From a virus (Duplodnaviria; Caudoviricetes): a DNA stretch of 61,162 nt. The stretch lies in the IMG/VR virus record IMGVR_UViG_3300047550_001096, positions 1-61,162 of that record; one strand, 5' to 3'. The position numbers were made by a program, and so were the translations under genes. Positions 28,300 through 61,161 of the stretch are shown piece by piece. The notes below the pieces were generated by a model, which was given only the letters and a program-made list of their open reading frames with translations, did no database searches and was not told where the DNA came from. Positions within the stretch are counted from its first letter, which is position 1. Every line of letters starts with the position of its first letter.

Positions 28300-28938
28300 T
28301 TAAACCTCTTCCAGAGATACCGTTATATTCCAAAAGTCAAAGTTGCTACCGCCCCTTTTTACAACAGAATAATTAAAGTCAGCAAAATATACTTGAATAA
28401 TTTGGCTATACTTATTTAAATTTTCGTATGCACTGTTAGTTGTACCAAAGTTAGAGTATTTATCGTATGAAAGATACATCCAAAATGGTCCTTTATGATT
28501 TTCATACCAATCTAATATTTGAACTCCTCCTGCGCCACCGTCTGCAGTATATTCTTCATTGCTTTTATTAAAATATTGAGATTTACCTTCTTCATCAAAT
28601 TCAGCATTTTCAAAATAAGATCTTGATGGTAAATTATTCCATGCCCAAGATATTGTTAATTTATCTGCAATATGATAAGATCTCATTCTTCCATTTATTG
28701 TTCTTTGACGCTGTTCTAACCTCTGTGTTTGAAAATTAATTTCTCCTCTATTGTGGTCAGACAATATTAAAAATTGATTAGTCAATATCGGATCTGTATT
28801 TTCTGGAATTGCAGCGCCTATTTCATACCCATTTGGAACATAAAATCCATCTGTTAGTGTCCCTGAATTTTCAGACCAGAGAACTGCTTGAGGTCTTTGG
28901 TACCTTTTTCTTCCAAGCATGTACGCCGATGTTGTCAT
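28300..28938 (-). CDS. Distal tail (Dit-like) protein
   Basis: Directly follows the tape measure; RQRTINGRMR...WNITVSLEEV. Confidence 0.6.
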   Translation of the reverse strand: MTTSAYMLGRKRYQRPQAVLWSENSGTLTDGFYVPNGYEIGAAIPENTDPILTNQFLILSDHNRGEINFQTQRLEQRQRTINGRMRSYHIADKLTISWAWNNLPSRSYFENAEFDEEGKSQYFNKSNEEYTADGGAGGVQILDWYENHKGPFWMYLSYDKYSNFGTTNSAYENLNKYSQIIQVYFADFNYSVVKRGGSNFDFWNITVSLEEV

Positions 28939-31900
28939 TATGACCTTATGCTCCTAATTCTTTGAGAGTCTGCATATTTAATTTCATCTATTACGGCCCT
29001 AGCAATTGATTGTGCATCAACTGAGGTTCCTGCAACATTTACTCCAACACTATAATTATACACGTTGTTGCTGCTGTTTGTTATAGGTGATGTATTTATA
29101 GCAGTATTTGATATAGTAGTTGGAGAAAGAGTAGAATATTTTGGTTCAACAAATGTAGTATTGGCCATTGGTAACTGTACCATTGTTCTTGGCTTCATAT
29201 CTTTTGCCATGGCGCTTACAGCTCCGCCAATGCCACCCTTACCTTTATCTAAACCTCTTACAACCTGTCCAAAATTATTTTTAAACGATGTTGGCATATT
29301 TCTATTTGTTGCTACTGATCCACCATCGCTGAAATTCTTAGAAAGTATTGATGGGAACTTACTATTATTAATAGCATTTAATAATGGATAAAATTCTTTA
29401 GATGCTGCTTTATTAATTACAAATTCCCCTGGAGTTAGCATTGCTGGGACGGTATCTGATCCAATTGGCTTATATGAAATTAATTTTCCATTATTATAAT
29501 ATGAAGCTTTACCACCATAATTAAAGTTCTTTATCTTTCCACCATACATACTTCCAGGGACAGCGCCAATTCCTGGTCCCTGATTTAAATACTTATATTC
29601 AACTTCTATTACGTGTCTAGTTGTTACAGTTGTATCCCATGATTGTATTTCTTTTGTAATTGCAGATACCGCTGCAAATGCGGCCTCTAATTCTCCAGCT
29701 AATGTTGCTACTATACCTTGAATTGTAGTGATAGTATTTGTAAATACACTACCCTGTGAAACCAGAGAAGTAAAGGCTTTGTCAGTTCTTTCTGTATCTG
29801 TTGCAATATTTTCTAATGGGGTTTCTAGGCCAGCTATTGCATCTTTGAATGCCTGCACTTGTGGGGTAAGGGTATCAAATAGGGCAGAAAGTTCTTGTAT
29901 TGTAGTTAATATTGTTTCTGCATCTTCTCTTATTAAATCCCAATTTTCTACAATTTCTTCTACATCTTCTCTAATCTCTTCAAAATAATCTCTAACAAAT
30001 CTCATTTTTTCTTCAAAAAACTTTATTTCTATGTTTAGTTCTTTAAACATTACAGTAATTGGCTTTTTGTCTCCAGTTAGCGATGCTGGCCGTTTAAACT
30101 CTTCTGGTCTTCCTTGTGGGAATCTTGCTTGTATTGTTTCTAAGAATTGAGCTTTTCTGTCAACGTTTGCATCGCTGCCTCCTGGCATAGCATTATATTC
30201 AGCCATTAATTTATCATATTCTGCAATTAAAGCCTTACGATCTTGTTGCATTTTATCTAGTTGTTTTTCATCTATTGGATCTAGTACTCCAGTATCAATA
30301 GCAACTTTTGCACTCATATTTAATAGCTGTACAGAGTCACTAACTTTCTTTAAAGCATCATCCATTGATAATACAGCAGCTGCTGTTTTCTTCAATGTCT
30401 GCTTATATTTGTCTAGCGCTATCTGTGCCTTTTCCCATTCAAGTTTTCTTTTCTCAATGGCATCAAGCTCTTTCTTCAAAAGATCTTCTTCTGCTTTCAA
30501 CCTGTCTTCTAAATCCTTTAATCTTTTTTCTGCATCAGCAAGTTCTTCTTTTCGTAGTCTATCTATCTCTACTTCATGTTCTCTTATTGCAAGAGTTGCT
30601 TGCTCTCTTAATTCTTGTCTACGATATAGGTCATCTTCAAGTTTAAGAATTTCTGCTTGATTAATCTTTCTTTGTTGCTCAAGATCAAATATCTTTTGGC
30701 TAATCTTAAATTGCTCTTCTTCAATCTGCCTTCTTGTCATACCGCTTGAAGAGCGAAGATTTTCAATTTCAGCTTTACGAGATGCAGCTAAAACATCTCC
30801 AGCTGTTCTTGATGCTGCATCTGCAGCTTGAGCCCTCATATCCTGTGCAAGCTTTGCAGCAGCAGAAATATCTCCCTGTGTTAATGCATCAGCCAATCCA
30901 ATTTGAGACTTCTGCTGATTAATAATATCCTGATTAATTTGTGATATTTTATTAAGAGCTTCTTCTTGTTTGTCATACTTTTCATTAATTGCTTCAGCAG
31001 CTTTATCCATTATTGCAAGATCATTTGAAAGAACAGACGATCTATCTTGTAATGCAGATATTGGTCTGTCAAACTGTTCTTCAATTACTCTTTGTGCATC
31101 ACTTATACGCTCTCTTAAGTCTTCAAGTACATAGTCTCCAAATTGTGGATCATATTTGATCTTAAGATTAATGTCATCAATCTTGTCTTGTTCAGCCTGA
31201 ATTTTTTCATTAATTCTATTGACAGCATCACGGGCACCTTCAATATCTATCTTTAGCTGGAATGTTCTAAGATCAAATGCATTCTGCAATTCTCTTGCTT
31301 GCAAGTCTAATGCAGCAAGGTTTTCATCAATTTGTTCTTGTAATAGATCTGTTTGTGATTTTGTTTTTTGAGCAACTACATCAAGAAGATCTAGGTATCT
31401 TTGTGTTTTACTAATAATATCATCAATGCCTTGACCAGTAACTACTGCATTTACAAAGTTTTGATTTTTTAATACTTCTAAAATGACCTTTTGCTCTACT
31501 TGTTTTTTAGCCAAAATATCATATGCTTCAACCTGTGATTCAAGATTATCAATTTGCTTATCTAAAGATACTAAAGATTCTTCAGACTTTAGTCTTATAG
31601 TCTTTAAAATTTCAGCATTGAGATCTTTTCTTTCCGATACTGAAATACTTAAAAATCCTTGGTCAGCAATCATTCCAGCCATAGTAGCGTCTGAAAGAAT
31701 TCTCTCTATTTCAAGCTGAGAATATTTAGCATCTTTTAATATCTTATAGGCTGTTACTTGATTTTGAATTTCTTTATTTTCTTGCTTAGTCCTATCAATT
31801 AACTCTCCAGCAGTAAGAGTTCTTAGGGCAGCATTAATTTTAAGGAAGTCATCTTTAAGACCAGTAATTCTTCCCTTTTTACCAAGGGTAAATAATTGTT

Positions 31901-34900
31901 TTGACCACAGATTAAACTGCTCTGGATCCATACCCTTTAGTATTCCAATAAAATCTTCATTTAATACAATACCTGCTTTTTTAGCTGCAGCCCTTATTTG
32001 ATCAATAGCCCCAGCTTGTTCTGCAAGCATTGGATTAACATTATCTTTTGTTCCATAAAACTTTCTAATTTCTGAAAGAGCCTTTGTTGCATCTAGACTG
32101 CTTTCTTTAACAAGTTTTAGTCTTTGTGCAATGTCTTCTAGCCAAGAAGTATCTCTCTTTGTTTTTCCTGCTCCACTATCGCTACCGTTTCCATTTTTCT
32201 CTGTTCCAGAAAGTGCAGTTCCAAAAATTTGAGTTAAAGCAGCTTCTTCGGCCTTTTTCTTTATGTCTGGATTTGCTGCTGCAAATGCATCAAGGGTAGA
32301 TTTTGTTACTCTTCTTGCTGTTGGATTTGTTTTTTTATAGGCTGCAGCAATCTCTCTTTGAACAATGGTATCAAACGACTCTGATGTTTTTAATGTAGAT
32401 AGAGTAATCATTGCTTGGAACTGTAATTGTTTAGGAAGCTTAGATAAAATATCCCATTGTTTAATAGCATTATCTAATGTAAGATTTGTTCCCTTACCAA
32501 TATCTTCTTGAACCTTTGTTAAAGCCTCCAGAGTAATTTGGCCATCTGGGAACTTTTTCTTTAAATCTCCAACTTCTTTACCAAGCTTCATTAATTTAGG
32601 AAGAGCATCTGGATTAGTTTCTAGATCAATACTAATTCCAATAAACTCTGGTATTTTAATTATTTCTTCTAATCCAGCTAGAGTTGCGTCTGCCTGTGCT
32701 TTATTTTTACTTGCTATATCAACAACTAGATCTTTTTTATTTTTTTCTCCAGGTATTAGAGTTAATACGGTGCTTAATCTTTGTAGTCCTTCTGTTCCTT
32801 GGGTTTTTACTATAGTATCTATTGTTTTCTTTGGTGGCATACCCGCTTTTGTTAGTGTAGAGAGAAGAACTGATGCTTCGTTTGGAGTTAAAACATCAGA
32901 TGTTACTAAAGTAGATATTTTAATAGTAAGTTTATCGTCTTTCATTTTATCAAGTGTATCTTGCAAAACTGATGCTTCTGCTGCAAGGCCAGCATTATCT
33001 TTAAACTTTTCTTTCATGCCGACTCTAAAGGCTTCCATATATTTATCACGAACAGCACCACGTCCAGATCCAAGTGGACTTATTCTTTCAAATAATGATT
33101 GTCCAGAAATTTTATCAAGATTTCCAGCTGCATCAGACAGCATCTTGGCTTGTGCCTGTCTAATATCTCTTAATCCGCCCTGTCTTTTTTCTTCTAGCCC
33201 TGCAATTTGATCATCTATATCTGATCTTTCTTTTTCAGTTTTTGCAATCTTTTTCTTCAATTCAAGATTATTAATAGCAGAATCAAATTGAGCGTTAAGC
33301 GCATCAATTCCTTGTTGTGATGCTGCTAAGTTTTGTGTAACAATTCCTTGTAGTTGTCCTGCTGCTTTTCCAACAGCAGCTTTTTCTTTACCCTTTTGCC
33401 AAGACCTTAAAGCAGCCTCAACACCACCAAAAATTATAGTTCCTAAAGCAGCACTTATTAAAGCTGGAACGCCTGCAACTCCGCCAGTTCCAACTGCTGC
33501 TGCAGCAGAGCCAGCCTGAATTGCAACTCTTGCTCCTTTAGCAACGTTTAATGCAGTTTTAAGTTTTCCAGCACCTGAAGCTGCTTTTAACTCTGTTGAT
33601 GCTGATAATGCGCTTTTAATACTTTGTGCTGTTTGCATTGCATTATATGATCTCATGCCAGCATATATTCCTAATCCAGCAGCTGGTATTGCAGCACCAC
33701 CAAGTTGTAATGCCTCTGAACGATTAATACCTCTTTGCTGCATGCCAACCATATTAAGATTCTTTATGGCTGCTTCCTGCATTCTTTGACCACTTGCAAT
33801 TAACTCTACCTGAACTTTAAGAGGATCATTAACAAGATTTTCTCCATTTGGACCAAGCAATTGTATTAATCTACCACGCACATCTAATTCTAGTCTTGCA
33901 TCTTTAAGATCTCTTGTAAGTGCAACTGCTATTGATTCTGCCTGTGCTGCATCTAATATTCCCTGAGATACTGCTGTAGCAAGTTGATTTGATAATGATT
34001 CTGCTGCTGTGCCTGCACCAAATGTTGACATTGTTTGATTAAAACTTGCTGCAAGAGATTTTCCAAAATCAGAATTACGAATTATATTTTGACCAAACTC
34101 CATACTAACTGGAGTTATTTCAGTAGTTCTTCCAGCTCTTTGTGCTGCTGCAACTTGTGTAATTGATACTTTTCCAGTTATTGATCCAAGCTCTTCAAGT
34201 CTCTTTGTTGTCATAGTCATAGACTCAGCTTGCTTTTGTCCTTCAACTATATTATTTTTAATAGTAGATGCTTGAGCTTTAAATACCGCAATAAGTCCAA
34301 CTGCGGTTGCAGCTAACATTTTTAATGGACTATTGAGCATAGGCAATAACATTGTTAACATAGAAATCATCATAATGAGATCCATGCTTTTTGCTATTGC
34401 ACTATCTGGGTTCTTTTGAGCATACATTCCAGCAGCCATGGGAGCTGCCATTCCAACCATTTGAAGTGGCATTGCTCTTTGTGTAAAATTCATTCTATTT
34501 AATTGACGCATATTGGTGCGCTCTGCTGGAGTAGCTAGTCTTTGTTGCCCAGTTGCTTCATCTGTTACTGTATTAGCAACTCCACCGTAACCACGAAGGA
34601 ATCCAGTAAATCCTCTTGTCTTATCTTTTCCTAAAGCCTCTGATGCATTATTTGCTGCAATATCTGTACCCTTAAATGAATTAGCAAGTTTTGTGGTAAC
34701 TTTTCTTAATGTACTCATTGAAGCTGCAGCAGCTTTAGTTTCTTTTTCAATACTAGATTTATTTGGTATAAATAATCCAGAGGGGGTTTGCCTATATCCA
34801 GCTGGATCATTTCCTTCAATAAAACCAGGAACTCTATCTGACATTATTGAACTAATTAATGGTGCATATTTAGCACTTTGTCTTGCTGGAATTACCGCTT

Positions 34901-37900
34901 CTCCTGGTGAAAGCATTGCAGGTTGAATATCTCCTGCACCTCTTGGACCAGGTACTGAAAGAATTCCACCTGCTAAACCAAGAATATCTTTGTCAACAAA
35001 TTTAAACTCATCATAATAAGTGTTTGGTTGTCTATTAACTCTATACCTTAGTGCTTCTCTTAATGCCAACTGAGAATCTGAAATATTTGTTAAGCTATCT
35101 AGTTGTCTTATAATTTGCAGTGCCTGTTGTGAATTAACTGGATGTGCTCCACTTACTCCATTAATAGATGTTCCTCTTAATCCTAAATTTAACCAGCTCC
35201 AGTCTCTTGCTATTTTTTCTTCTGTCCAAGAAGCCTTTCCTCTTTTTTTGCCAACTGGAGTAAGATGACTTGGGGTATCTTTTTTATCCCAGTTTAGCCT
35301 AGAAGATATTCCAGGGCGCAACCTTTCTAAGTTATTTTGAAGTATTGCTTTTTCTTCATTTTCATAATAACTCATAAGACGTATTGCATTAGGATTATTT
35401 CTACTTAAAATCTCTTTCCATCTTTTTTCTGCAACACTTTGTTTTCCAACTCTATTTTTAAGAGTGTCCCATTTTTGAAGTCTTCCATATATATCGCTAA
35501 GTCTGGTTATTTTTCTACCTTGAAGTTCTGGACTTCTAACTTTTAATAAATAGTATAACTTTCCTTCAGTTGTATTTTCCCAAGATTCACCTTTGCGTGT
35601 ACTAGTTCTTCCATGCTTTGCTGTTCTTGTTGGATCACCCATTGTTAAAAATCGTTCATTTTTTTGCAAAGCAATTTTTAAATCTTTTTTAGATGCTTTT
35701 GGAATTGAAAAAGAAACGTCTTTTAATTGAATTATTAAATCATCACCTTGTTCTCTATATAGTATATTTGATAAACCTTTTGCTTCTGTCCCAAATAATG
35801 ATTTAAATCCAGCAGCAGACCTTCCAGGCACTGATACTGGCAATAAAGGCGTCTTTCTTGATCCACCAGTTGCCTGCACCGTACTACGTGCAGCACCAAA
35901 CATTAAATCATCAAAATTAGTTGCAAATGATGTTCTTGCAAATGGATTTATACCAGTTGCAAATCCTGGCACCTTATCCTGAATAATTTGACTAATAAAT
36001 CCTGAATACTTTTGTGACTGTTTTGCTGGAATAACTGCTTCTCCAGGAGAAAGCATTGATGGCACAACATCTCCAGCTCCTCTTGGACCAGGAACTGATG
36101 TAGTTCCATCTGCAAACCTCTTTGGAGCTTTCCCTCTTCCAGGAAGGAATAGTCCTGGGTTATTAGCAGCGAATCCTCCCATTGCAACATTTGCTTGAGA
36201 ATATGTTCCGATCAAAGAACTAAGAGCTGCCTGCTCAAGTCTATATGCAGCAGAAAGTTGTTCATGCTTTGAATATAAAGCATTAGTAATAGATACGTTT
36301 TCTAATTCTTCCTGTGTTAGATATTGTGTTTTTAATGCAACGTCAGACGATCCATAAGCTAGCTGCTGGTATCCCTTACGAAGCATATTAACGCCCTTTA
36401 AGGAGTTAGCTACAGCGTTTGCTATTAAACCAAAAGTCATTAAGAAAATTGGACCAATACCGCCAACAACACCAATTATAATAGCAATAGCTTTTTTAAT
36501 ACCATCTGGCAAATTATTAAACTTCTCCGCTATTTTTCCAATATATTCTAGTACTGGAGTTAATATTTCAGCAAAAAGTTTTCCAATCGGAGCTATGGCA
36601 ACTTTTAATTTTTCAATTGATGCAGCAAGCTTATTCATTGGAGAATCTGCTTGAATTTTTAACTCTCGCTTACTCAAAATTGCAAGTTCTTCAGCAGATG
36701 CATTTGTTAGCTGCAAAACACGTGCAGCCTGCGTTCCTTCTTTTCCAATATTATTTAATAATGCAGAAATTCTAGCAAACTGATATTTTCCAAATATCTT
36801 TTCAATTATTTGTGTTCTTTGCAAATCTGTTAATGGTTGTAGTGATTTTGCAAAAGCTGTTACTATGTTTCTTAAATTACCCTGATTTTCTTGAATTATA
36901 CCCTTTAAGTTTATACCAAGATCTGATGCTGCAGCAGCTGCTGCTTTACTTGGATTAATTAATGATGCAAGTCCAGACTTTAGTGCGTTTGCACCTTGTG
37001 CAGCACTAATACCACCTTCTTGCATTGCAGCCATAAAATAAGCAAGATCTTTAACATCTCCACCAAGTTGTTGAATAACTGGTGCTACTCTTGGTACTGC
37101 TTCAGTTAAATCTTCTAGCGCTACAACTGTTTGGTTTTCTACTGCGTTTAAGAAATCAATAGTGCCAGATAGTTGACTCTCGTCAATCTGAAATGCATTT
37201 CGTAAAGCAATTGTTGTTTCAAGAGCTTTTTCTTGTGTTACTCCACCAAGTACTGCTAATTTGTTTGTTTGCTCTACAAGATTTTCAAGACCTTTGCCAC
37301 TAAAACCAGCAGCTGCTGCATCTGCAGCGGTCTTAATAGTATCTGCTACCTTTAATCCATATTTTGTATATTCATCACCAAGTTCACGAATATTTTTTAA
37401 TGCTTGATCAGTTGCCCCCTGATCTGTAAAAATATCTCCATAAACCTTTTTGAATCTAATTACTTGTGTTTCAATTTCTTTGAATGTTCTAATTGCCTGT
37501 GTTCCAAATATTGCTAATGGTATAGTAAAACCAACCATAAGCTGACGACCAGCCCATTGTGTATTTTTACCAAAATTTAAAAGTTTTGTTGCTCCATCAT
37601 CCATCAACTTATTAAATATTTGTTGACGTTGAGTTGCTAGCATTAATTGAGTTGTTACATCTCTATAATTTAATGCTTTTGGAGTAAATTTAAGTGCATT
37701 CATTGCACCCTGAGCATCACGGCCTAGCTGTACATATTGTTGCTGTAGAGTCTTTACTCTTTTATCTACTAACTTACTTACTGTGTCAAATTCATTACCA
37801 AATACCCTGCCAAAAGTACGAGTAGATGCAACACCATATCTAAAATATTCCTTAAGAGATAATTTTGATTTATCTAGAGCAGTAGCAAATTGTTCTGTTG

Positions 37901-38120
37901 CCGTCTTCATTCTAGTCATGGACGCTGTCCACTGACCAGTTGCGTTTACATTATGAAGTAGTGATTGTGCATACTTAGACTGAGCCTGAGTAGCAGTTTT
38001 TGTTCCAACAATAAGAGCACGGTTAAGGGCAGTAATTTCTTTTTCCAAGGCACGAAGTTGTGCCATAGCCTGAGACGTATCAATATTTATAAAAATATTG
38101 CTATTTGTATCTCCTGCCAT
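28938..38120 (-). CDS. Tail tape measure protein (3060 aa) with internal cargo domain
   Basis: TP901-type core (A+GANALKS.LASL.NP), hydrophobic segments, long coiled coils, three D.(V/Q)P.ML(S/T)PGE.VI motifs; follows the chaperone genes. Confidence 0.92.
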   Translation of the reverse strand: MAGDTNSNIFINIDTSQAMAQLRALEKEITALNRALIVGTKTATQAQSKYAQSLLHNVNATGQWTASMTRMKTATEQFATALDKSKLSLKEYFRYGVASTRTFGRVFGNEFDTVSKLVDKRVKTLQQQYVQLGRDAQGAMNALKFTPKALNYRDVTTQLMLATQRQQIFNKLMDDGATKLLNFGKNTQWAGRQLMVGFTIPLAIFGTQAIRTFKEIETQVIRFKKVYGDIFTDQGATDQALKNIRELGDEYTKYGLKVADTIKTAADAAAAGFSGKGLENLVEQTNKLAVLGGVTQEKALETTIALRNAFQIDESQLSGTIDFLNAVENQTVVALEDLTEAVPRVAPVIQQLGGDVKDLAYFMAAMQEGGISAAQGANALKSGLASLINPSKAAAAAASDLGINLKGIIQENQGNLRNIVTAFAKSLQPLTDLQRTQIIEKIFGKYQFARISALLNNIGKEGTQAARVLQLTNASAEELAILSKRELKIQADSPMNKLAASIEKLKVAIAPIGKLFAEILTPVLEYIGKIAEKFNNLPDGIKKAIAIIIGVVGGIGPIFLMTFGLIANAVANSLKGVNMLRKGYQQLAYGSSDVALKTQYLTQEELENVSITNALYSKHEQLSAAYRLEQAALSSLIGTYSQANVAMGGFAANNPGLFLPGRGKAPKRFADGTTSVPGPRGAGDVVPSMLSPGEAVIPAKQSQKYSGFISQIIQDKVPGFATGINPFARTSFATNFDDLMFGAARSTVQATGGSRKTPLLPVSVPGRSAAGFKSLFGTEAKGLSNILYREQGDDLIIQLKDVSFSIPKASKKDLKIALQKNERFLTMGDPTRTAKHGRTSTRKGESWENTTEGKLYYLLKVRSPELQGRKITRLSDIYGRLQKWDTLKNRVGKQSVAEKRWKEILSRNNPNAIRLMSYYENEEKAILQNNLERLRPGISSRLNWDKKDTPSHLTPVGKKRGKASWTEEKIARDWSWLNLGLRGTSINGVSGAHPVNSQQALQIIRQLDSLTNISDSQLALREALRYRVNRQPNTYYDEFKFVDKDILGLAGGILSVPGPRGAGDIQPAMLSPGEAVIPARQSAKYAPLISSIMSDRVPGFIEGNDPAGYRQTPSGLFIPNKSSIEKETKAAAASMSTLRKVTTKLANSFKGTDIAANNASEALGKDKTRGFTGFLRGYGGVANTVTDEATGQQRLATPAERTNMRQLNRMNFTQRAMPLQMVGMAAPMAAGMYAQKNPDSAIAKSMDLIMMISMLTMLLPMLNSPLKMLAATAVGLIAVFKAQASTIKNNIVEGQKQAESMTMTTKRLEELGSITGKVSITQVAAAQRAGRTTEITPVSMEFGQNIIRNSDFGKSLAASFNQTMSTFGAGTAAESLSNQLATAVSQGILDAAQAESIAVALTRDLKDARLELDVRGRLIQLLGPNGENLVNDPLKVQVELIASGQRMQEAAIKNLNMVGMQQRGINRSEALQLGGAAIPAAGLGIYAGMRSYNAMQTAQSIKSALSASTELKAASGAGKLKTALNVAKGARVAIQAGSAAAAVGTGGVAGVPALISAALGTIIFGGVEAALRSWQKGKEKAAVGKAAGQLQGIVTQNLAASQQGIDALNAQFDSAINNLELKKKIAKTEKERSDIDDQIAGLEEKRQGGLRDIRQAQAKMLSDAAGNLDKISGQSLFERISPLGSGRGAVRDKYMEAFRVGMKEKFKDNAGLAAEASVLQDTLDKMKDDKLTIKISTLVTSDVLTPNEASVLLSTLTKAGMPPKKTIDTIVKTQGTEGLQRLSTVLTLIPGEKNKKDLVVDIASKNKAQADATLAGLEEIIKIPEFIGISIDLETNPDALPKLMKLGKEVGDLKKKFPDGQITLEALTKVQEDIGKGTNLTLDNAIKQWDILSKLPKQLQFQAMITLSTLKTSESFDTIVQREIAAAYKKTNPTARRVTKSTLDAFAAANPDIKKKAEEAALTQIFGTALSGTEKNGNGSDSGAGKTKRDTSWLEDIAQRLKLVKESSLDATKALSEIRKFYGTKDNVNPMLAEQAGAIDQIRAAAKKAGIVLNEDFIGILKGMDPEQFNLWSKQLFTLGKKGRITGLKDDFLKINAALRTLTAGELIDRTKQENKEIQNQVTAYKILKDAKYSQLEIERILSDATMAGMIADQGFLSISVSERKDLNAEILKTIRLKSEESLVSLDKQIDNLESQVEAYDILAKKQVEQKVILEVLKNQNFVNAVVTGQGIDDIISKTQRYLDLLDVVAQKTKSQTDLLQEQIDENLAALDLQARELQNAFDLRTFQLKIDIEGARDAVNRINEKIQAEQDKIDDINLKIKYDPQFGDYVLEDLRERISDAQRVIEEQFDRPISALQDRSSVLSNDLAIMDKAAEAINEKYDKQEEALNKISQINQDIINQQKSQIGLADALTQGDISAAAKLAQDMRAQAADAASRTAGDVLAASRKAEIENLRSSSGMTRRQIEEEQFKISQKIFDLEQQRKINQAEILKLEDDLYRRQELREQATLAIREHEVEIDRLRKEELADAEKRLKDLEDRLKAEEDLLKKELDAIEKRKLEWEKAQIALDKYKQTLKKTAAAVLSMDDALKKVSDSVQLLNMSAKVAIDTGVLDPIDEKQLDKMQQDRKALIAEYDKLMAEYNAMPGGSDANVDRKAQFLETIQARFPQGRPEEFKRPASLTGDKKPITVMFKELNIEIKFFEEKMRFVRDYFEEIREDVEEIVENWDLIREDAETILTTIQELSALFDTLTPQVQAFKDAIAGLETPLENIATDTERTDKAFTSLVSQGSVFTNTITTIQGIVATLAGELEAAFAAVSAITKEIQSWDTTVTTRHVIEVEYKYLNQGPGIGAVPGSMYGGKIKNFNYGGKASYYNNGKLISYKPIGSDTVPAMLTPGEFVINKAASKEFYPLLNAINNSKFPSILSKNFSDGGSVATNRNMPTSFKNNFGQVVRGLDKGKGGIGGAVSAMAKDMKPRTMVQLPMANTTFVEPKYSTLSPTTISNTAINTSPITNSSNNVYNYSVGVNVAGTSVDAQSIARAVIDEIKYADSQRIRSIRS

Positions 38121-38145: not shown

Positions 38146-38472
38146 TTAGTCTTGTGACGCTAGAGCAAGAAGAGCTGATTCTGAAAGGTTAATTCCAGAT
38201 GCAGCCTCAATGATTGAATAAACTGTAGGAAGATCAATAAGTTCTTCTAGTTTTTCAACACTGTCCCCAAGCTCTGGCTTATACTGTTGCATTGCAATCT
38301 GAACACATTCAATCAAAAGCGTCATAGACTTGTCATTATCATCTTGGACTGCTGTTAGTCCTTCAAACTTCTTCATAAACTGACGAAGAAGAGAGATTTT
38401 TAGTGGTCTAACTTTGATTTTTGTGCCATCAATTAGAGAAATTTCTTTCTCTTCATGCACGGATGTAGCCAT
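38146..38472 (-). CDS. Tail assembly chaperone (short, gpG-like)
   Basis: Lies between the tail tube and tape measure genes; own TGCTATAAT and strong RBS AAGGAGGAG. Confidence 0.7.
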   Translation of the reverse strand: MATSVHEEKEISLIDGTKIKVRPLKISLLRQFMKKFEGLTAVQDDNDKSMTLLIECVQIAMQQYKPELGDSVEKLEELIDLPTVYSIIEAASGINLSESALLALASQD

Positions 38473-38515: not shown

Positions 38516-39244
38516 TTATTTTTTCATAAGGCTAGGATCTCTTAAATCTGTGTAATCTAAGCCCATTCCTATACCAAATCCAGATTTTCTTGCATTTTGT
38601 CCTTGAAGCGCCAGCACGTCATTGCTGTCTGTTGCCTTGCCTTTACTAAATACCCTGGCCTTCATATCTTCCCATTCTTTTTGACCTTTTACCTTACCGC
38701 CAGAGTTTGCCTTATCTGCATCTATATCAATACCCTGAATGGCTGCTAAAAATTTCTTTTCTTGATAATCTAGTTCTCTTAATGATGATAATGTTGCCAA
38801 TAATTCTGGCATAGAAAGATTTTCCTCTAGCTCTTTATAATCTTTCCATATGCCTATTAAAAATACTTCTGATTCTAATTTTGCTAAATCTAGGCTATCC
38901 CAATTACTTCCACCTTCTTTTGAGTTTGCCTGTTCTTTAATTGACTCTTCAGAATCTTTTTCTATTTTAATACTTCCTGCTATATTTACTATTTTATATA
39001 CCGTTGGCAAATCAACTTGATCTTCAAATTCTGCTAATGTTTTTATTTTAGGATAATATTGTTGCATAGCAAGAAATCCACACTTTGATAGCAATGTAAG
39101 AGATTCCTCATCATCTTTAGCATTTTTTATTTTATTAAATACCGTCATAAAATAACGCAAGTATTTAATTTTCAATGGATAGATTTCTATTCTTGTTCCA
39201 TTTAATAAATAAATAACATCTGTTTTATATACTGCCGTTGCCAT
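38516..39244 (-). CDS. Tail assembly chaperone (long, gpG-T-like)
   Basis: First ~100 aa are paralogous to 38146..38472; ~140-aa C-terminal extension. Confidence 0.7.
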   Translation of the reverse strand: MATAVYKTDVIYLLNGTRIEIYPLKIKYLRYFMTVFNKIKNAKDDEESLTLLSKCGFLAMQQYYPKIKTLAEFEDQVDLPTVYKIVNIAGSIKIEKDSEESIKEQANSKEGGSNWDSLDLAKLESEVFLIGIWKDYKELEENLSMPELLATLSSLRELDYQEKKFLAAIQGIDIDADKANSGGKVKGQKEWEDMKARVFSKGKATDSNDVLALQGQNARKSGFGIGMGLDYTDLRDPSLMKK

Positions 39245-47893: not shown

Positions 47894-50800
47894 TTATACT
47901 GGTGTTCCTACCTTTGTTTCCCAAACAATGTCAATATATGCGCTAAGATTGCTAGAAGATACCTCTATACCCTGATTATCATCAACAATAACCTTGTTTG
48001 TTCCTATATATGTTTCATATATTATTGAAGGATCAACTCCATAAATATCTGTAGAGCCAATTATTAATACATCTTCCCAGTCAGTAGTACCCTGGTTCCA
48101 ACTATCCCAGGTAAAGTCTGTTATTCCCTCAGAAAGTACGTCTGCCCAAGGTCTTGTTAAGACTCCCTGTATTTGTTGAAGATTATTTGCCTGATAAAAT
48201 GCAACATTATTAAATACTAGTGGACCATTTAGATTTATTTCTCCAATAAATGCATCAAAGTCTAAAGCTGGAGCAAATTTTATTCCAAGAGCACCCCATT
48301 CTTTAGTTGTTATAAAAGGTTCTCTCACTGGATTACCATTCCAATAATAAGATATTCCCTTATATTCTTCGCCAGTTTTTGTGCTTATGGCATATATTTT
48401 TGCCCTGTTACTTGCTGTTCCTATTGACTGCATATAAAACTTTATTACATCTCGTTTTGTTGATATTTCAAATACTTTAACTGGGTTAGCACTAATTGTA
48501 TTTAAATTACTTTTAATCCACATTTGAACTGCACTTATTTTATAGTCTTCAACTAGGTTAGTATTTATTGGAACAGCAATACCTCTATTTATTGATGGAG
48601 AAATAACTCCCCTAACTTCTATTCCAGAAGTATTGGTTAGATATAAGTATGGTGTACTTCCTTTATAAATGCTATATGGATTTTTTGATTTATAATCATA
48701 ATATATACCGACTTTTTTATATGGATAAACATCTATACCAAATCGTGTTCCAACTGGATTAAAATCAACACTATTAAAAGCTTGTGATGCTATTTGTAAT
48801 TTTTTAATTGCAATTGGTTTTGAAAGTATTCCTTTTACTTTAAACTCTAAACTATATACCATTGCTATTTCGTTAAAGTCTACAGTTTTATCTGGATAAA
48901 TTAGTGTATTATCTAACACTTCAAATCTTGTAATATCCCAGTCAGTGTACTCACTAACATCAAGAACCTTGCCTTCTTTTGCTGGAACATTTATACTAAA
49001 ATAATCTTTTGGTGCATTTGCTCCTTCATCAATATATTGAAATGTTACATAACTACGAACCGACGCATCTTGTGTATCATACTCTAAAAATGATATACTC
49101 TTTTGTGACATTTCTTGATAAGAGTTCCATCCAGTTAATAAGTAATCATCTAATTCTTCATATGTTAGCTGTACAGGAGTAGAATATTCATCTTTTAACT
49201 CGTCGTATGTCCATGTTTGAATATCTCCACCTTGTACTAATTTATTAGATGGTGGATAAGATATATTATACTGTAAAAAGTCTAGATCATAATAGCTATC
49301 TCCAGTTTCTGTTTTTATAAATTGTCCAAAATAAGAAAGTGGCATATAGTCTTGCCAATATCCTGCTACTGATATATCTAAAAAGTAGTTAGAGTAAGAT
49401 TCCATTGGAATCAAGGTATAGCTAGCAACATGGTTTAATAATGTTAATGCGTTTGTTGGCTCATCATATCCACTTGCATATGGATCATCAATTATAACTA
49501 TTCCATTTTCTTCAAAGCTATTTTTTATTTCATTAGAATTATATACAGTACATAATCCAAATGAATAAATTCTTCCAGTAAATTGATTACTTAAATATCC
49601 GTCTCCTCCAACATATATACCCATACCATTCAAATTACCAAAAAATGCTAAAAGGTTTCCGCCAAAAAAATCAACTAGCTGATCTATTTTAATTCCTACT
49701 GCAAATTTTTCATTAGAAAGTATTAGATTGGTTACATGTAAAAGACTTGTTATTCCATTATAAGTAAAATAATATCTTATTTCGTCTGAGTTTCTTTCTA
49801 TTGTAAAAGAATTTCCTGTAATAGAGTTATAAATTTTTATTAATATTTCTGATGATAGTAAGTTATCTGTTGAAAATACTCCATATACTGCATTTACTTT
49901 TGATGATAAAAGATTAAATTTTTGAAAATTAAAATAACAAAGATCTAAATCCCAAAAACTATTTGGTCTAAATGAAATAAATTTATAGTCTGGATCATCT
50001 TGTATATCTTTATTATCTAAATAAAGATCATTTATGTCTCTATTATTAATAAAAATATTTGGTAAAGAATAGCTTGGAGTTGTAATAGATGATGGTGTGG
50101 CAACTAAGTTGTCAAATGTTGCCTGTTGCCATTTTGCAAAATCTGGATAATTATAGTTAGCAGTATAGTCTGCAAATGGATAGTCTATAAATGCTTCTGT
50201 GCCATCATAGGAAGAATTTATTGACTCTGGAGAAATAACTGCTTGTCCATAAACAAATCTTCTTTTAGCTACATTAACTGGAACTGAATAAGGATATATC
50301 GCAACGCAATCTATTTCAAATGGCGACACATCTTCATATGCATAAAAACCAAGCCAGTCCTGTTTTGTTCCAGACTCATTAAATTGAGAAGGAAGATCTA
50401 AAGTATCTGTGTCTATTACCATTGATATAGCCTGAGAACCATTAATAAATACACTAGCAGAGTTTTGAATAACTTTAACCTGTATTAGCATTGGTCTTGA
50501 CCATTCACCAACAAAATATGATGAGAATGATTTGCCAATTGATAAAGTTAAAAATCCTCCTTCTACATATAATCCGTCTGTTGATGTTATAGGACCAAAT
50601 ATTCTTTTTGCTTCATATGTATTTACATCAATACGTGCCCAAAACTCTACGGTATAGTCTTTAAACTGACCAACTTTATTTAAAAATCCTTTTCCTGGAA
50701 CTATTAAAGAAGGATCTCCATTGTTTTGTTTTAACTTAGTTATATTAGATGCACCAAAAACAATTGGAATTCCAGTATTGTTTGATAACATGTAATTATC

Positions 50801-51508
50801 TTTAACTAGATAATACCCTGGATCTTGAGCTAATCCATAGGAGTCTGCTAAAATACAATCAAAACCAGATATTGGAACATCTGCTGGTAAACTCTGTTTT
50901 ACAGCACCTAAAGATACTGCATTAAAATTTTCTGATAATTGTCCTACAGTTATTCCATTGATATAAAATTGATAGTCAGATGATGATGCTCCGCCATCTT
51001 CATAAAAGAATTTTATTAAAACTCTTAAAGATGTATTATCAGCTGGCACTTCAAATGTTCCTGAAATAAAACTCCAAATATTAAAAGAAGTTGTCTCAAA
51101 CTCTTTAAACTGCTGTATATTATTTGACGTTAAAATATCTGTATATTCAAAACCTATTGCTACCTTAGTTATATATGGACTGTTAGAATAAAAATATGCA
51201 CCAATACAAAATGTTTCTATATCTGGATCTAGGGAAGCAAAATTAACTATGTCTGGACTTGTACATAAAAGTGATGTTGGAGATACTGGAACATCTGCTT
51301 CTATAAGACTAATATTGCTATTTGGAAATGGTTGTTTTTCAATATTTGGCGATGCTAAAGCTGTTGCATTTAATAGTGTCCATCCAGTGATATCTCTATC
51401 TGACTCTTGTATTAGACTTAAATATGATATTTCATCGTCCAGCGCCCACATTGATGTTGGGTGCTCTGCAAATATCTTTTCTGCATACAAGTTAGATGGG
51501 GTGGCCAT
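47894..51508 (-). CDS. Large putative virion protein (LamG/carbohydrate-binding-like domains)
   Basis: YAEKIFAEHP..WALDD start; YTVEFWARI and IDCVAIYPY LamG-like motifs. Confidence 0.6.
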   Translation of the reverse strand: MATPSNLYAEKIFAEHPTSMWALDDEISYLSLIQESDRDITGWTLLNATALASPNIEKQPFPNSNISLIEADVPVSPTSLLCTSPDIVNFASLDPDIETFCIGAYFYSNSPYITKVAIGFEYTDILTSNNIQQFKEFETTSFNIWSFISGTFEVPADNTSLRVLIKFFYEDGGASSSDYQFYINGITVGQLSENFNAVSLGAVKQSLPADVPISGFDCILADSYGLAQDPGYYLVKDNYMLSNNTGIPIVFGASNITKLKQNNGDPSLIVPGKGFLNKVGQFKDYTVEFWARIDVNTYEAKRIFGPITSTDGLYVEGGFLTLSIGKSFSSYFVGEWSRPMLIQVKVIQNSASVFINGSQAISMVIDTDTLDLPSQFNESGTKQDWLGFYAYEDVSPFEIDCVAIYPYSVPVNVAKRRFVYGQAVISPESINSSYDGTEAFIDYPFADYTANYNYPDFAKWQQATFDNLVATPSSITTPSYSLPNIFINNRDINDLYLDNKDIQDDPDYKFISFRPNSFWDLDLCYFNFQKFNLLSSKVNAVYGVFSTDNLLSSEILIKIYNSITGNSFTIERNSDEIRYYFTYNGITSLLHVTNLILSNEKFAVGIKIDQLVDFFGGNLLAFFGNLNGMGIYVGGDGYLSNQFTGRIYSFGLCTVYNSNEIKNSFEENGIVIIDDPYASGYDEPTNALTLLNHVASYTLIPMESYSNYFLDISVAGYWQDYMPLSYFGQFIKTETGDSYYDLDFLQYNISYPPSNKLVQGGDIQTWTYDELKDEYSTPVQLTYEELDDYLLTGWNSYQEMSQKSISFLEYDTQDASVRSYVTFQYIDEGANAPKDYFSINVPAKEGKVLDVSEYTDWDITRFEVLDNTLIYPDKTVDFNEIAMVYSLEFKVKGILSKPIAIKKLQIASQAFNSVDFNPVGTRFGIDVYPYKKVGIYYDYKSKNPYSIYKGSTPYLYLTNTSGIEVRGVISPSINRGIAVPINTNLVEDYKISAVQMWIKSNLNTISANPVKVFEISTKRDVIKFYMQSIGTASNRAKIYAISTKTGEEYKGISYYWNGNPVREPFITTKEWGALGIKFAPALDFDAFIGEINLNGPLVFNNVAFYQANNLQQIQGVLTRPWADVLSEGITDFTWDSWNQGTTDWEDVLIIGSTDIYGVDPSIIYETYIGTNKVIVDDNQGIEVSSSNLSAYIDIVWETKVGTPV

Positions 51509-57553: not shown

Positions 57554-58924
57554 TTAAACCTTTGATACTGATAGTGAAATAGTTGCTTTTGTAACAGATG
57601 TTACGCTATCAACGTTAAATGCAAGAATATCTCCAGAAGATATTGATGTAGTCCAACCAGTTAAGGTTGAACTTTGACCCTTAGTAGCAGTAGTTGTTAA
57701 TGGTTTTGCAGAACCAGTAATTGTATCTGCTACAGTTGGAGGGTAGTTAGCATAAGTATCTTTCCAAATATCAATAGTAATAGAACCAGATACATCATTT
57801 AATACTGTCCACTTTGTAATAGTACATCCAAATGGTATTTCTAAATATCCTTTAAGACCTGTTGTAATTACAGATCCGCCACCATCAATAATAAATGTAA
57901 TAGTTCCATCTGCTACACCTCTTGTACCTTGAATACCAGTTGTGCCTTGTAATCCTTGTAATCCCGTAGTTCCTTGAGTTCCAGTTGAACCCTGTGTACC
58001 AGTTGTGCCTTGTGAACCAGTTGTACCTTGTGGTCCTTGTGTTCCTTGAATACCAGCAACGCTAAATGTCCAGGCTGCAAAAGTACCAGATCCACCGAAA
58101 ACATCAGCGTTAATCGTAATGCTTGTATCTGCAGTAATTGATGTAATAGAACCTTCAACATAGTTAGATGGTGTTGCTGTATTTGCTGCACGAACACGCT
58201 CTCCTAACTGAAATGCACCAGTATTTGAAACTGTAAATGTTTTAGAGCCTGTTCCAATAGCAACAGATGTTGATGATGTAACTCCTAAAAATGAACGACC
58301 TTGGATTCCTTGAGTACCCTGAGTTCCAGTAGAACCCTGAGTTCCTGTAGTTCCTTGAATACCTTGATCCCCAGTTCTAGAAAAAACTACTGATAATGAT
58401 CCAGTATTAGTAGGAAGTGATCCAGAAACATATGAAACTGGTATCTTATAATATCCAGTAGCTCCACCAGTTGGAGTTACTGCTCCAGTAACTGTAAAAA
58501 CATTGAATGTAGTAGAGCCAACACTAGTTCCTAGCAAATATATTGTTCCACGAGTTGCAGTAGTTGTTGAATCATCCCAAGTATCATACCAACCAGTTTG
58601 TGTATTTCCTAAAGAATCAAGATTATCTATATATATAAAACTAACAGAAGACATTGTTCCACTGTTATATCTAATTATTCCATTTCCAGGATCTGAATCA
58701 GTAGTTGTAGTACTAAATGCATATGGGACACCACCGCTACCGCTTGGTCCAACTGTCCCTTGAATACCAGATGCATAGGCTAAAGAATTCCAGCTAGTAG
58801 ACCCATTTCCTACTTTAAATTTACCAGTATCTGTTTCATATCCTGGTTCTCCAGCAGCCAATAATGTATTAGCAGCTGTCCATTGTGCTGCTGTACCTCG
58901 TCTATACTGAATTTGAATTGGCAT
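57554..58924 (-). CDS. Collagen-like tail fibre with Mtd-N-like N-terminal domain
   Basis: IQYRRGTAAQW...LAAGEPGYETDTGKFKVGNG..WNSL.Y; globular domains separated by G-X-Y runs. Confidence 0.8.
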   Translation of the reverse strand: MPIQIQYRRGTAAQWTAANTLLAAGEPGYETDTGKFKVGNGSTSWNSLAYASGIQGTVGPSGSGGVPYAFSTTTTDSDPGNGIIRYNSGTMSSVSFIYIDNLDSLGNTQTGWYDTWDDSTTTATRGTIYLLGTSVGSTTFNVFTVTGAVTPTGGATGYYKIPVSYVSGSLPTNTGSLSVVFSRTGDQGIQGTTGTQGSTGTQGTQGIQGRSFLGVTSSTSVAIGTGSKTFTVSNTGAFQLGERVRAANTATPSNYVEGSITSITADTSITINADVFGGSGTFAAWTFSVAGIQGTQGPQGTTGSQGTTGTQGSTGTQGTTGLQGLQGTTGIQGTRGVADGTITFIIDGGGSVITTGLKGYLEIPFGCTITKWTVLNDVSGSITIDIWKDTYANYPPTVADTITGSAKPLTTTATKGQSSTLTGWTTSISSGDILAFNVDSVTSVTKATISLSVSKV

Positions 58925-58941: not shown

Positions 58942-61161
58942 TTATACAGTACCTGCATCAATTAGTGACATACCGCCATAATCTGAGTCTGGCGCTCCAC
59001 CATCAAGATTTCCCAAAGTATGAATAGCATTTCCTTGTTCAACCCAGAAATTATCATAATATAAAAATGTTTTAGTAGTATCTGATTCAAACCAAACAGT
59101 TCCTTGTACTGGAGATGAAGGTGGAGTATCTGATACAGTTAGACTTGATCCGCCACTTCCAGAAATACCTTGAGTACCCTGTGATCCAGTTGTTCCCTGT
59201 ATACCAGTTGTACCTTGTGTTCCAGTTCCAGTTAGCCCTTGTGAACCAGTTGTGCCTTGAGAACCTGTTGTACCCTGTGAACCTGTGGATCCCTGTGTTC
59301 CAGTGGTTCCCTGTGAACCCTGTGTTCCAGTTGTTCCTTGGCTTCCTGTAAATCCTTGTGTACCAGTTGAACCCTGTGAACCTGTTGTTCCCTGTGAACC
59401 AGTTGTGCCCTGAGAGCCAGTTGTTCCTTGTGAACCAGTTGTACCTTGAGAGCCAGTCGCACCTTGTGTTCCAGTTGTACCTTGTGAACCTGTGGATCCC
59501 TGTATTCCAGTAGTTCCCTGTGAACCTTGTGTTCCAGTTGTTCCTTGGCTTCCTGTAAATCCTTGTGTACCAGTTGTTCCTTGAGAACCAGTTGCTCCTT
59601 GTGAACCAGTTGTGCCCTGAGAACCAGTTGTTCCTTGAGAACCAGTTGCTCCTTGTGAACCAGTTGTGCCCTGTGCACCTGTAGTACCTTGTGCACCTGT
59701 AGTACCTTGTGCACCTGTAGTACCTTGAGAACCTGTAGTGCCTTGAGAACCTGTAGTGCCTTGAGAACCTGTAGTGCCCTGTATTCCACGTTCACCAGCT
59801 ATTGAAAATGTCCAAGCAGTAAATGTTCCTGATCCACCTGTTAAATCAACATTTACTGTAATACTTGTATTTGCTGTTAATGCAGTAATTTGACCTTCCA
59901 TATAATTGGCAGGAGTACCTGTATTAATTACACGAACACGTTCTCCAATTACATATGCACCTGTTAATGATGTATTAAATACTTTAGATCCAGTACCAAT
60001 AGCTATTGATGTAGTTGATGTGACACCAGAATAACCTGTTCCTTGTATACCCTGCGTTCCTTGTGAACCTGTTGTTCCCTGTGAACCAGTTGTGCCCTGA
60101 GAGCCAGTTGTTCCTTGAGAACCAGTTGTGCCTTGTGAACCAGTTGCACCCTGTGTTCCAGTTGTGCCTTGTGAACCAGTTGCACCCTGTGTTCCAGTGG
60201 TTCCTTGTGAACCCTGTGTTCCAGTTGTTCCTTGGCTTCCTGTAAATCCTTGTGTACCAGTTGAACCCTGTGAACCTGTTGTTCCCTGTGAACCAGTTGT
60301 GCCCTGAGAGCCAGTTGTTCCTTGTGAACCAGTTGTACCTTGAGAGCCAGTTGAACCCTGTGAGCCTGTTGTTCCCTGTGAGCCAGTTGCACCTTGAGAG
60401 CCAGTTGTTCCTTGTGGTCCAGTTGTTCCTTGAATTCCTGTTGTACCTTGAGATCCAGTTGATCCTTGTGCACCTGTATCACCTTTATCACCAACACGAG
60501 CTAAGGTCATTGCACATAATGTGTTATTTGAAAAACTTGAAACTGTACCAGAAACATATGCTACTGGAACTGTATACCATGTTCCATTATCAGTATGTGT
60601 TCCAACTATTTGATAAAAAACATAATTATCTGTATTATTATGATCAGATAATCTAAATGTTCCTTTTATAGTAGAAGTTGAATCGTCAATTGTTTCTAAT
60701 GCTGCAGAAACATTTGCATTATTTGCATCTATATCATCTATATAAAGCTGTGTAGCTGTTGTTAATGTATTATTAAATCTTATATACCCGCTTCCAGGGT
60801 CTGATGCTGTAGTGGTTGTACTATAGTTATAATCGTATGTTTCACCACCAAAATTACCAGTAGGTCCTTGTATTCCTTGTGAACCTGTTGTTCCCTGTCT
60901 TCCTTGTACTCCTTGTGCGCCAGTTGTACCTTGAGAACCAGTTGTACCTTGAGAACCTGTAGAACCTTGAGAACCTGTAGCACCTTGTGAACCTGTAGCA
61001 CCAGTTGTGCCCTGTGCACCAGTTGTACCCTGTGCACCAGTTGTACCTTGTGAACCAGTTGTACCTTGTGCTCCAGTTGTACCCTGTGCACCTACTGTGC
61101 CTTGTGTGCCAGTTGTGCCTTGTGTACCTTGAGATCCAACTGTTCCTTGTGTACCAACACT
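58942..61161 (-). CDS. Long collagen-like fibre protein, 5' end beyond the window
   Basis: The frame of ORF 58942..60510 stays open to the window edge (hand translation: G-X-Y run, then YNYSTTTTASDPGSGYIRFN domain), so Met at 60510 is internal. Confidence 0.85.
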   Translation of the reverse strand, partial: SVGTQGTVGSQGTQGTTGTQGTVGAQGTTGAQGTTGSQGTTGAQGTTGAQGTTGATGSQGATGSQGSTGSQGTTGSQGTTGAQGVQGRQGTTGSQGIQGPTGNFGGETYDYNYSTTTTASDPGSGYIRFNNTLTTATQLYIDDIDANNANVSAALETIDDSTSTIKGTFRLSDHNNTDNYVFYQIVGTHTDNGTWYTVPVAYVSGTVSSFSNNTLCAMTLARVGDKGDTGAQGSTGSQGTTGIQGTTGPQGTTGSQGATGSQGTTGSQGSTGSQGTTGSQGTTGSQGTTGSQGTTGSQGSTGTQGFTGSQGTTGTQGSQGTTGTQGATGSQGTTGTQGATGSQGTTGSQGTTGSQGTTGSQGTTGSQGTQGIQGTGYSGVTSTTSIAIGTGSKVFNTSLTGAYVIGERVRVINTGTPANYMEGQITALTANTSITVNVDLTGGSGTFTAWTFSIAGERGIQGTTGSQGTTGSQGTTGSQGTTGAQGTTGAQGTTGAQGTTGSQGATGSQGTTGSQGTTGSQGATGSQGTTGTQGFTGSQGTTGTQGSQGTTGIQGSTGSQGTTGTQGATGSQGTTGSQGTTGSQGTTGSQGTTGSQGSTGTQGFTGSQGTTGTQGSQGTTGTQGSTGSQGTTGSQGTTGSQGLTGTGTQGTTGIQGTTGSQGTQGISGSGGSSLTVSDTPPSSPVQGTVWFESDTTKTFLYYDNFWVEQGNAIHTLGNLDGGAPDSDYGGMSLIDAGTV
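59291..60351. repeat. 167-bp direct repeat (59291-59457 and 60185-60351, one mismatch) within GTTGSQ-coding repeats
   Basis: Aligned by eye; copies are 894 bp apart (in frame). A partial third copy lies near 59513-59576. Confidence 0.8.

Follow-up and report, generated by a model that had tools for sequence, protein, structure and literature searches.

Our analyses of a 61,162-base viral metagenomic record (IMGVR_UViG_3300047550_001096; the whole stretch is called the window hereafter) point to a motif-bounded slot inside the product of its tape measure protein (TMP) gene. A motif of 55 amino acids (aa) stands at both ends of an internal module, and in related viruses the motif is well conserved and the module is divergent or replaced. 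We propose, with a probability of about 0.55 for the explanation as a whole, that the gene comes from an uncultured siphophage and that the reiterated motif delimits a hot spot for the insertion, stacking and recombinational exchange of globular modules, which would serve as cargo delivered with the DNA. A first-pass annotation, made from the letters of the window, had read the arrangement as a set of swappable effectors built into the tail ruler; taken as a whole, that interpretation is partly supported by the results described here.

The TMP is encoded by a single open reading frame (ORF) of 3,060 aa (28938..38120, on the minus strand, as are all features of the gene given below). Motif copies M1 (aa 669-723; 35952..36116) and M2 (aa 1049-1103; 34812..34976) are 55 aa long and enclose exactly 325 aa (aa 724-1048; 34977..35951), so the duplicated motif around a cargo of about 325 aa was where the first-pass annotation had placed it, with the upper limit of M2 at 34976 rather than at about 34980. 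A BLASTP comparison of M1 with M2 gave 37 identical residues out of 55 (67%, E 1e-26). The third copy that had been noticed near the C-terminus was recovered as well: M3 (aa 2889-2924; 29349..29456) is a short form that matches positions 16-51 of the motif hidden Markov model, includes DTVPAMLTPGEFVI (aa 2889-2902; window positions 29415-29456) and shares 14 of 35 residues with M1 (BLASTP, E 3e-8). On these scores the resemblance among the three copies is far above chance. At the DNA level, M1 and M2 have 114 of 165 nucleotides (nt) in common (69%), their longest exact common run is 14 nt, and the codons differ at 16 of the 37 residues that are identical. Because of this nucleotide identity and these codon differences, the duplication must be old and has been kept at the protein level. 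A recent duplication or an assembly artefact was also considered for M1 and M2, and is ruled out by the same two observations together with the presence of both copies in 24/24 related loci that reach M2. The cassette formed by M1, cargo and M2 lies between two hydrophobic segments, again as the first-pass annotation had stated: segment 1 (aa 540-571; 36408..36503) has a mean Kyte-Doolittle value of up to 2.35 over 19 aa, and segment 2 (aa 1241-1266; 34323..34400) was likewise located by hydropathy, as was segment 3 (aa 1541-1571; 33408..33500), which is found further on.

Evidence for exchange was provided by a scan of viral contigs, which yielded 25 related loci with complete TMP ORFs of 2,861-3,290 aa. 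M1 was present in 25/25 of them, M2 in 24/24 that reach it and M3 in all 22 whose ORF reaches the stop codon. The first-pass annotation had named a test in advance, namely that the segment between the motifs should be hypervariable and its flanks conserved, and this is the pattern that was obtained. M1 was 78-93% identical in the 25 loci and M2 75-81% identical in 24 (the truncated locus L026 aligns via M1 only, at 65%), whereas the cargo was 23-62% identical in 17 loci and gave no BLAST hit in eight. The N-terminal 660 aa of the window TMP were 81-87% identical in the 22 loci that cover at least 90% of this region; L003 (75%, at 40% coverage) and L016 (62%, at 3% coverage) are both 5′-truncated. 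Behind the cassette, identity to the loci was 35-63% for aa 1104-1700, 39-52% for aa 1701-2600 and 23-39% for the last 460 aa. The motif copies were thereby shown to be under strong purifying selection, and the modules to diverge fast and to be replaced, in relatives, by profile-unrelated families.

The loci closest to the window in the cargo are L002-L004 (61-62%), and those closest in the N-terminal region are L006, L007, L015 and L022 (87%), where the cargo is only 28-35% identical. Since the nearest relatives of the two regions differ, the TMP is mosaic. Codon-aligned nucleotide identity was 82-88% in the motif core (aa 690-719) and 43-65% in the interval that follows. This peak in the core and collapse at the C-terminal edge give the motif the appearance of a recombination anchor, the role that the first-pass annotation had assigned to the repeats, although selection on the peptide contributes to the peak too.

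The distance between M1 and M2 falls into two classes, with 373-385 aa in the window and four loci and 655-737 aa in 20 loci, and the difference is due to a second module in the long class. This module B, of about 290 aa, follows module A (the family to which the window cargo belongs) and begins at a degenerate motif start (AGGVVSLGMP...). The window TMP lacks it and represents the minimal two-copy state with one family A module; that most close relatives have this additional module had escaped the first-pass annotation. Among the long-class loci, 19 of 20 carry module B1, and L014 carries B2 at the same place. In L014 (5011-6129, plus strand) and in the representative P0100, the B2 module that stands in place of B1 has a G-N-x-D-x-H-x-x-N pattern. 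L014 also retains a leftover half-motif, SMISDSVPGFIRG, which looks like a recombination scar.

The same architecture was found in a much larger set of proteins. An HMMER search of 1.84 billion representatives returned 614 proteins at E ≤ 0.001, and a word-based search with M1 returned 726 clusters at E ≤ 1e-5; the survey of modules is based on the best 150 of the former and the best 120 of the latter. Nearly all of the best 150 HMMER matches are 2,000-4,400 aa long, and the best-matching stretch is mostly the motif alone, spanning the cassette in just three (P0002, P0003 and P0063). Among the best 120 clusters, 117 have PF10145 as their only Pfam family, two have no Pfam family and one has PF08230. 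Judged from these matches, the window is part of a large uncultured clade with TMPs of about 3,000 aa. Full motif copies were counted in the 125 listed representatives of at least 2,000 aa: 41 have one, 79 have two and five have three. The median start of the first copy is aa 668, and the segments between copies (n=89) measure 187-2,003 aa, with a median of 329 aa.

A set of 123 inter-motif segments was excised, 12 module families were set up with single-module references, and profiles were compared with one another by hhalign. Just three pairs of families were linked, A with P0047 (93%, over 186 columns), P0055 with P0056 (66%) and C with P0047 (60%, over 25 columns). Because only these three pairs among the 12 are tied together, we count about nine to ten profile-unrelated module families in the best 150 of the 614 proteins, in agreement with the earlier expectation that unrelated domains would occupy the slot. 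In the 98 segments from representatives, B1 stands alone in 40 and C alone in 21; family A is found in 16, by itself or in a stack with B1, C or P0056. The module of P0004 (P0004b) is a cytidyltransferase by PHROG (E 2.8e-11), with a Pfam CTP_transf_like match just below the cut-off (E 1.2e-3), and B2 has a sub-threshold Pfam match to PI3_PI4_kinase (E 0.01). In B1, the commonest module, K75, E86, D157-K-D-L, N164 and D172 are invariant in 13 sequences, and its Atlas leads are HipA_2, LepB_N and PI3_PI4_kinase, all scoring below 0.9; B1 may thus be called kinase-like, as an unverified label. The P0057 module shows, by eye only, an ADP-ribosyltransferase-like R...S-x-S...E-x-E pattern. Six of the scanned families, A among them, have neither a match nor leads of the kind seen for B1 and P0057, and PDB searches with the B1 profile and with the P0004, P0057 and L014 modules returned nothing credible. 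To judge from the profiles, the slot has the property of a polymorphic system, in that unrelated domains are exchanged at a conserved delimiter on a constant scaffold.

We were curious about the nature of the module in the window itself. Its composition is basic and rich in tryptophan, as the first-pass annotation had remarked, with 8.6% Lys, 8.6% Arg and 2.2% Trp compared with 8.1, 4.8 and 0.5% in the whole TMP. A single-sequence AlphaFold2 (AF2) model of the cassette was unusable, with a predicted local distance difference test (pLDDT) value of 36. With alignment A1, which holds 24 family A sequences at identities to the window down to 18%, AF2 gave pLDDT values of about 70-96 at query positions 111-389. 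These positions correspond to aa 770-1048 (34977-35813), where the model is a globular mixture of strands and helices; the first ~46 residues of the cargo are below 50. The modelling has shown, within the limits of prediction, that the cargo is a folded globular alpha/beta domain and not a coiled coil, a point on which the first-pass annotation was also right. Seven residues are invariant in A1 (S951, H952, N978, A1000, L1024, R1027 and Y1036). Ser951-His952 (35265..35270), invariant in 24/24 sequences, belongs to the SHLTP stretch (aa 951-955) and lies at the end of a predicted strand (query 290-293); a second predicted strand (query 311-314) is followed by a helix (query 316-322) that contains Asn978 (35187..35189). 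His993 (35142..35144) is nearly invariant, being kept in at least 90% of the sequences.

Our searches place module A in proteins of the tape measure type. No free-standing or non-TMP homologue of the cargo was found, and these searches were word-based and length-limited, which makes them weak evidence of absence; on that footing, module A is probably confined to TMP-type proteins. Outside the giant TMPs, the matches comprise a fragment of 258 aa from a contig of 1.3 kb and two proteins with PF10145, one of 860 aa and one of 1,575 aa. The longer of these two, P0261, is a TMP-type protein on a 122,642-base contig, and its module A is 61% identical; the protein could be a giant TMP that has been split or frameshifted, or else a truly shorter form.

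The identification of the gene as a tape measure, which the first-pass annotation had made from the letters, was confirmed by database matches. The PhageMin_Tail domain (the TP901-type TMP core, Pfam PF10145) was recognized at aa 243-444 (36789..37394) with an E of 1e-30, and TIGR01760 of NCBIfam at aa 208-557 with an E of 7e-34; the NCBIfam scan gave nothing beyond the TMP core. Thirteen PHROG families match the protein, 12 of which are annotated as TMP. Eleven of the 13 matches stop before aa 651, and phrog_167 and phrog_28 extend to aa 808 and aa 1479. Genes for an Ig-domain protein, a virion structural protein, a protease and a portal lie upstream, and on the downstream side are an ORF of 212 aa and the gene for a minor tail protein of 1,549 aa (phrog_10359). 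By sequence, the product is TMP-type on every count considered: the PF10145/TIGR01760 core, the position of the gene, and the hydrophobic segments together with the shared C-terminal motif.

This C-terminal motif reaches well into cultured phages. The 81 aa around M3 match annotated TMPs in 121 cultured phage records, whose hosts include Gordonia, Mycobacterium, Nodularia, Streptomyces, Acinetobacter, Burkholderia and Ralstonia; in two of these records that were inspected, the match stops 54 and 62 residues ahead of the TMP stop codon. The corresponding region of the TMP of Dinoroseobacter phage R26L matched 674 places in 613 cultured phage records. On these alignments, the 55-aa motif of the window is the long form of a general TMP motif that often occurs as a single copy shortly before the C-terminal plug. 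The motif is widespread in TMPs and apparently undescribed, and its general occurrence in cultured phages had not been seen by the first-pass annotation. In the PDB, the R26L region could be aligned to several TMP chains, namely those of Douge (963-1027 and 1409-1483), JBD30 (1016-1072), T1 and a lambda-type TMP, and the motif is modelled in none of these structures. According to the accessible parts of the structure papers, only residues 1,658-1,699 of the Douge TMP and the last 33 residues of the JBD30 TMP are modelled, and the JBD30 authors merely speculate on a cut at residue 1066. PDB searches with the motif profile and with the C-terminus of the window TMP found nothing credible, and DNA and protein searches of cultured phages with the cassette gave no match. 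In RefSeq, the TMP gene of some mycobacteriophage records (e.g. NC_051624, NC_051591 and NC_028979) is named 'endolysin', while the GenBank twin has 'tape measure protein'; the RefSeq label is presumably due to an embedded hydrolase domain.

TMPs are described, in the accessible portions of the literature, as trimers that fill the tail tube, are the first component to leave and form a conduit across the envelope. We predict that the module, being a portion of the trimeric TMP, would be carried in the lumen of the tail tube and would be expelled from the tail ahead of the DNA. Entry of the hydrophobic segments into the membrane would then expose the module to the host cytoplasm or periplasm, where it could have an enzymatic function or bind DNA or some other target. 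The constant motif would be the adaptor that fits any module to TMP assembly or processing, possibly as a cleavage or docking site, and would also provide the homology for module exchange.

Several observations weigh against this proposal. Motif cleavage, ejection of the cargo, exposure in the host and effector activity are steps that we infer, and, from the known dimensions of tail tubes, three copies of a folded 30-kDa domain have no obvious fit in the lumen. M1 and M2 have pLDDT values below 50 in the alignment-based AF2 model, so the motif has no confident predicted structure. M1 and M2 did not pair with each other in this model. The cargo alone matches no Pfam or PHROG family, a PDB sequence search with the cassette profile found no credible relative, and the ESM Atlas gave no usable match for the cargo. 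A structural check of the kind named by the first-pass annotation delivered the folded core but no relative of it: when the alignment-based model was compared with PDB and BFVD by Foldseek, nothing was returned at E ≤ 0.001, and the best of 48,161 chains in VIA reached a Z of 3.8, with none at 5 or above. In both of these structural comparisons the query was the 451-residue cassette model, whose long disordered flanks weaken single-domain matches. For the other modules, labels such as kinase-like or ADP-ribosyltransferase-like are leads taken from by-eye motifs or sub-threshold scores; eight of the ten scanned families (all but P0004b and B2) have no Pfam or PHROG match, with P0005 and P0007b lying outside the scan. 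Family C appears to be of low complexity, and some modules may be spacers and not enzymes. Finally, rapid evolution is not unique to the cargo, because identity between the window TMP and the loci is likewise low (23-39%) at the far C-terminal end.

Alternative explanations were weighed against this background. If the motif were a processing signal and the TMP a polyprotein, each module would become free or exposed in the cytoplasm of the host before the DNA arrives, for takeover or counter-defence. Such TMPs would be the phage counterpart of polymorphic toxins, and recombination within the motif would let phages exchange modules. On this account the modules would belong to family A in the window, while other TMPs would supply kinase-like, PI3/4-kinase-like and cytidyltransferase-like domains. 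We regard it as a tentative possibility that falls well short of even odds. A purely structural role, in which the motif docks or registers long TMPs at the tube wall, chaperones or tip and the modules are tolerated spacers or plugs with no action on the host, is in keeping with the usual place of the general motif just before the C-terminal plug and with a TMP length that tracks the added module (2,861-3,060 aa with one module versus 3,140-3,290 aa with two). It is also in keeping with the lack of an enzyme-family match in module A and in seven of nine other scanned families, and with the restriction of module A to TMPs in our word-based, length-limited searches. However, a globular fold with an invariant Ser-His, Asn and His would be unexpected in a spacer, as would a cytidyltransferase-type domain or the kinase-like catalytic-loop pattern that is invariant in 13 B1 sequences, and cargo shaped by conflict is typically swapped in this way, with one unrelated family taking the place of another at a single site. 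We consider the structural role rather unlikely.

It would be still less expected that the modules are envelope-penetration enzymes, muralytic or membrane-active in the periplasm or wall and never cytoplasmic, with module A as a new domain of this kind. The cassette does adjoin hydrophobic segments, and in the TMP of mycobacteriophage LilDestine the motif copies flank an NlpC/P60-RipC-like domain. The muralytic domain of the T5 TMP pb2 is split off by cleavage, as reported in the available part of its literature. Yet lysozyme, transglycosylase or peptidase matches were obtained for none of the ten scanned clade modules, the best 120 of the 726 clade TMPs gave the Pfam content listed above (117 with PF10145 only), and cytidyltransferase- or kinase-like modules would presumably need cytoplasmic nucleotides. 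We judge this explanation improbable.

The activity of module A is a separate question, and the first-pass annotation had seen in it a site reminiscent of HNH nucleases. On this view the module would be a nuclease of the HNH/His-Me finger kind that is injected and cuts the DNA of the host or of a competitor. The residues in question were upheld, since S951-H952, N978 and H993 show full or nearly full conservation across 24 sequences with identities down to 18%, and hhalign ties family A to a more remote module, that of the P0047 type, at 93%. In the model, His952 closes the first of the two predicted strands and Asn978 sits in the helix behind them; a strand-strand-helix arrangement with His and then Asn is the order of a His-Me finger, and the module is basic. 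The family assignment was not upheld. Pfam gave no HNH family in 24/24 family A members at E ≤ 5, where only scattered chance-level matches were obtained, there is no PHROG family, and no nuclease rose above noise in Foldseek or VIA with the cassette model and its disordered flanks. The module has zero cysteines (0%) and no second His-rich metal site. It does possess the conserved His and Asn/His ligands, but a conserved pattern alone is no proof of catalysis. A His-Me nuclease is accordingly our leading guess for module A, a weak one that we hold to be doubtful.

Several known systems share features with the proposed slot. The Douge/LilDestine-type mycobacteriophage TMPs (PDB 8ZDO chain S; GenBank MH779511 gp16) resemble the window in carrying the motif family twice. 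In the LilDestine TMP (L030, 1657-6783) the copies are at aa 950-1014 and 1410-1477, and in both phages they flank about 390 aa with a recognisable domain and have boundary peptides of the same PGF/PGY-A-x-G-G type as in the window. As a positive control, the LilDestine insert matched RipC (E 1.6e-8) and, with an E of 4e-5 that lies at the cut-off of Pfam, NLPC_P60. Because these copies flank an NlpC/P60-RipC-like stretch, the motif-domain-motif arrangement is present in cultured phages. The Douge/LilDestine type differs in that its insert is a cell-wall hydrolase and its TMPs are about 1,700 aa long; the window cargo shares the flanking motif copies and lacks the hydrolase homology. Evidence for unrelated modules in the Douge/LilDestine slot was not found, and the accessible part of the Douge structure paper makes no mention of a motif duplication. 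T5 pb2 and lambda gpH are similar to the proposal in having an enzymatic part and a proteolytic cut during tail morphogenesis, and differ in having one C-terminal domain, no reiterated delimiter and no module exchange. In pb2 the cut is placed after R1127, between a hydrophobic stretch and the muralytic motif, in the part of the literature available. Sle1-type effectors of actinobacterial contractile injection systems, as far as their description extends in the accessible part of PMC13277306, have a TMP-derived scaffold, a transmembrane part and an exchangeable species-specific domain. They are cargo of bacterial injection systems, their variable domain is C-terminal, and a reiterated motif is not described in that part.

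Other precedents come from outside the tail. Polyvalent proteins differ from the window TMP in being, reportedly, head or ejection proteins rather than TMPs. They are said, in work of Iyer et al. from 2017, to be large and multi-domain, with varied enzymatic domains and a proposed entry into the host with the DNA. No link between tape measure proteins and polyvalent proteins was found in the accessible text of papers that contain both terms. In the polymorphic toxins, the variable part is C-terminal, whereas the slot described here is internal, bounded on both sides, stackable and carried by a virion protein. Polymorphic toxins such as Rhs and CdiA reportedly (Zhang et al. are said to have set this out in 2012) combine a constant delivery scaffold with a short conserved peptide that precedes the variable part, and unrelated domains are swapped there. 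An immunity gene would not be expected for a lytic phage. TMP-embedded domains, TMP cleavage and conserved delimiters with exchangeable toxin domains are thus known already. What is apparently new is a reiterated TMP motif that bounds an internal, stackable slot filled by about nine unrelated and mostly unannotated module families, in a clade that numbers hundreds of phages with giant TMPs; a full-text literature search, with subscription papers outside its scope, found no description of motif-bounded, exchangeable, non-muralytic TMP modules.

The established roles of TMPs are to measure the tail, to form a channel and, occasionally, to carry domains that degrade the cell wall, and a motif-bounded slot would widen this picture. 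If our proposal is correct, the tail lumen would be a cargo bay from which proteins enter the host in advance of all phage gene expression, and the widespread TMP motif would have a function. A simple sequence rule would become available for mining early-acting phage proteins in metagenomes, and engineered phage-delivered proteins would have a natural site of insertion. Should the modules be structural only, the finding would still account for much of the mosaic structure of giant TMPs and of their variation in length.

The completeness of the window record was estimated by CheckV at 54%, and related contigs reach about 105-123 kb. Nearly all genes are on the minus strand. Besides terminase, portal, head protease and tail protein genes, there is one for a virion structural protein and there are others for collagen-like fibre proteins; a DNA polymerase and a ribonucleotide reductase are encoded as well. 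The two ORFs that immediately precede the TMP gene (38146-38472 and 38516-39244, both minus) each match phrog_10504, and the 242-aa member of the pair matches phrog_10474 as well; they resemble a duplicated or split tail-assembly-chaperone pair and not the usual G/G-T frameshift layout. A 1,204-aa ORF that adjoins the portal gene (47894-51508, minus) has no PHROG match at E ≤ 1e-5 and possibly encodes a large head-associated or ejected protein. The collagen-like tail fibre genes (57554-58924 and 58942-60510, both minus) lie beyond the head genes, distant from the main tail module.

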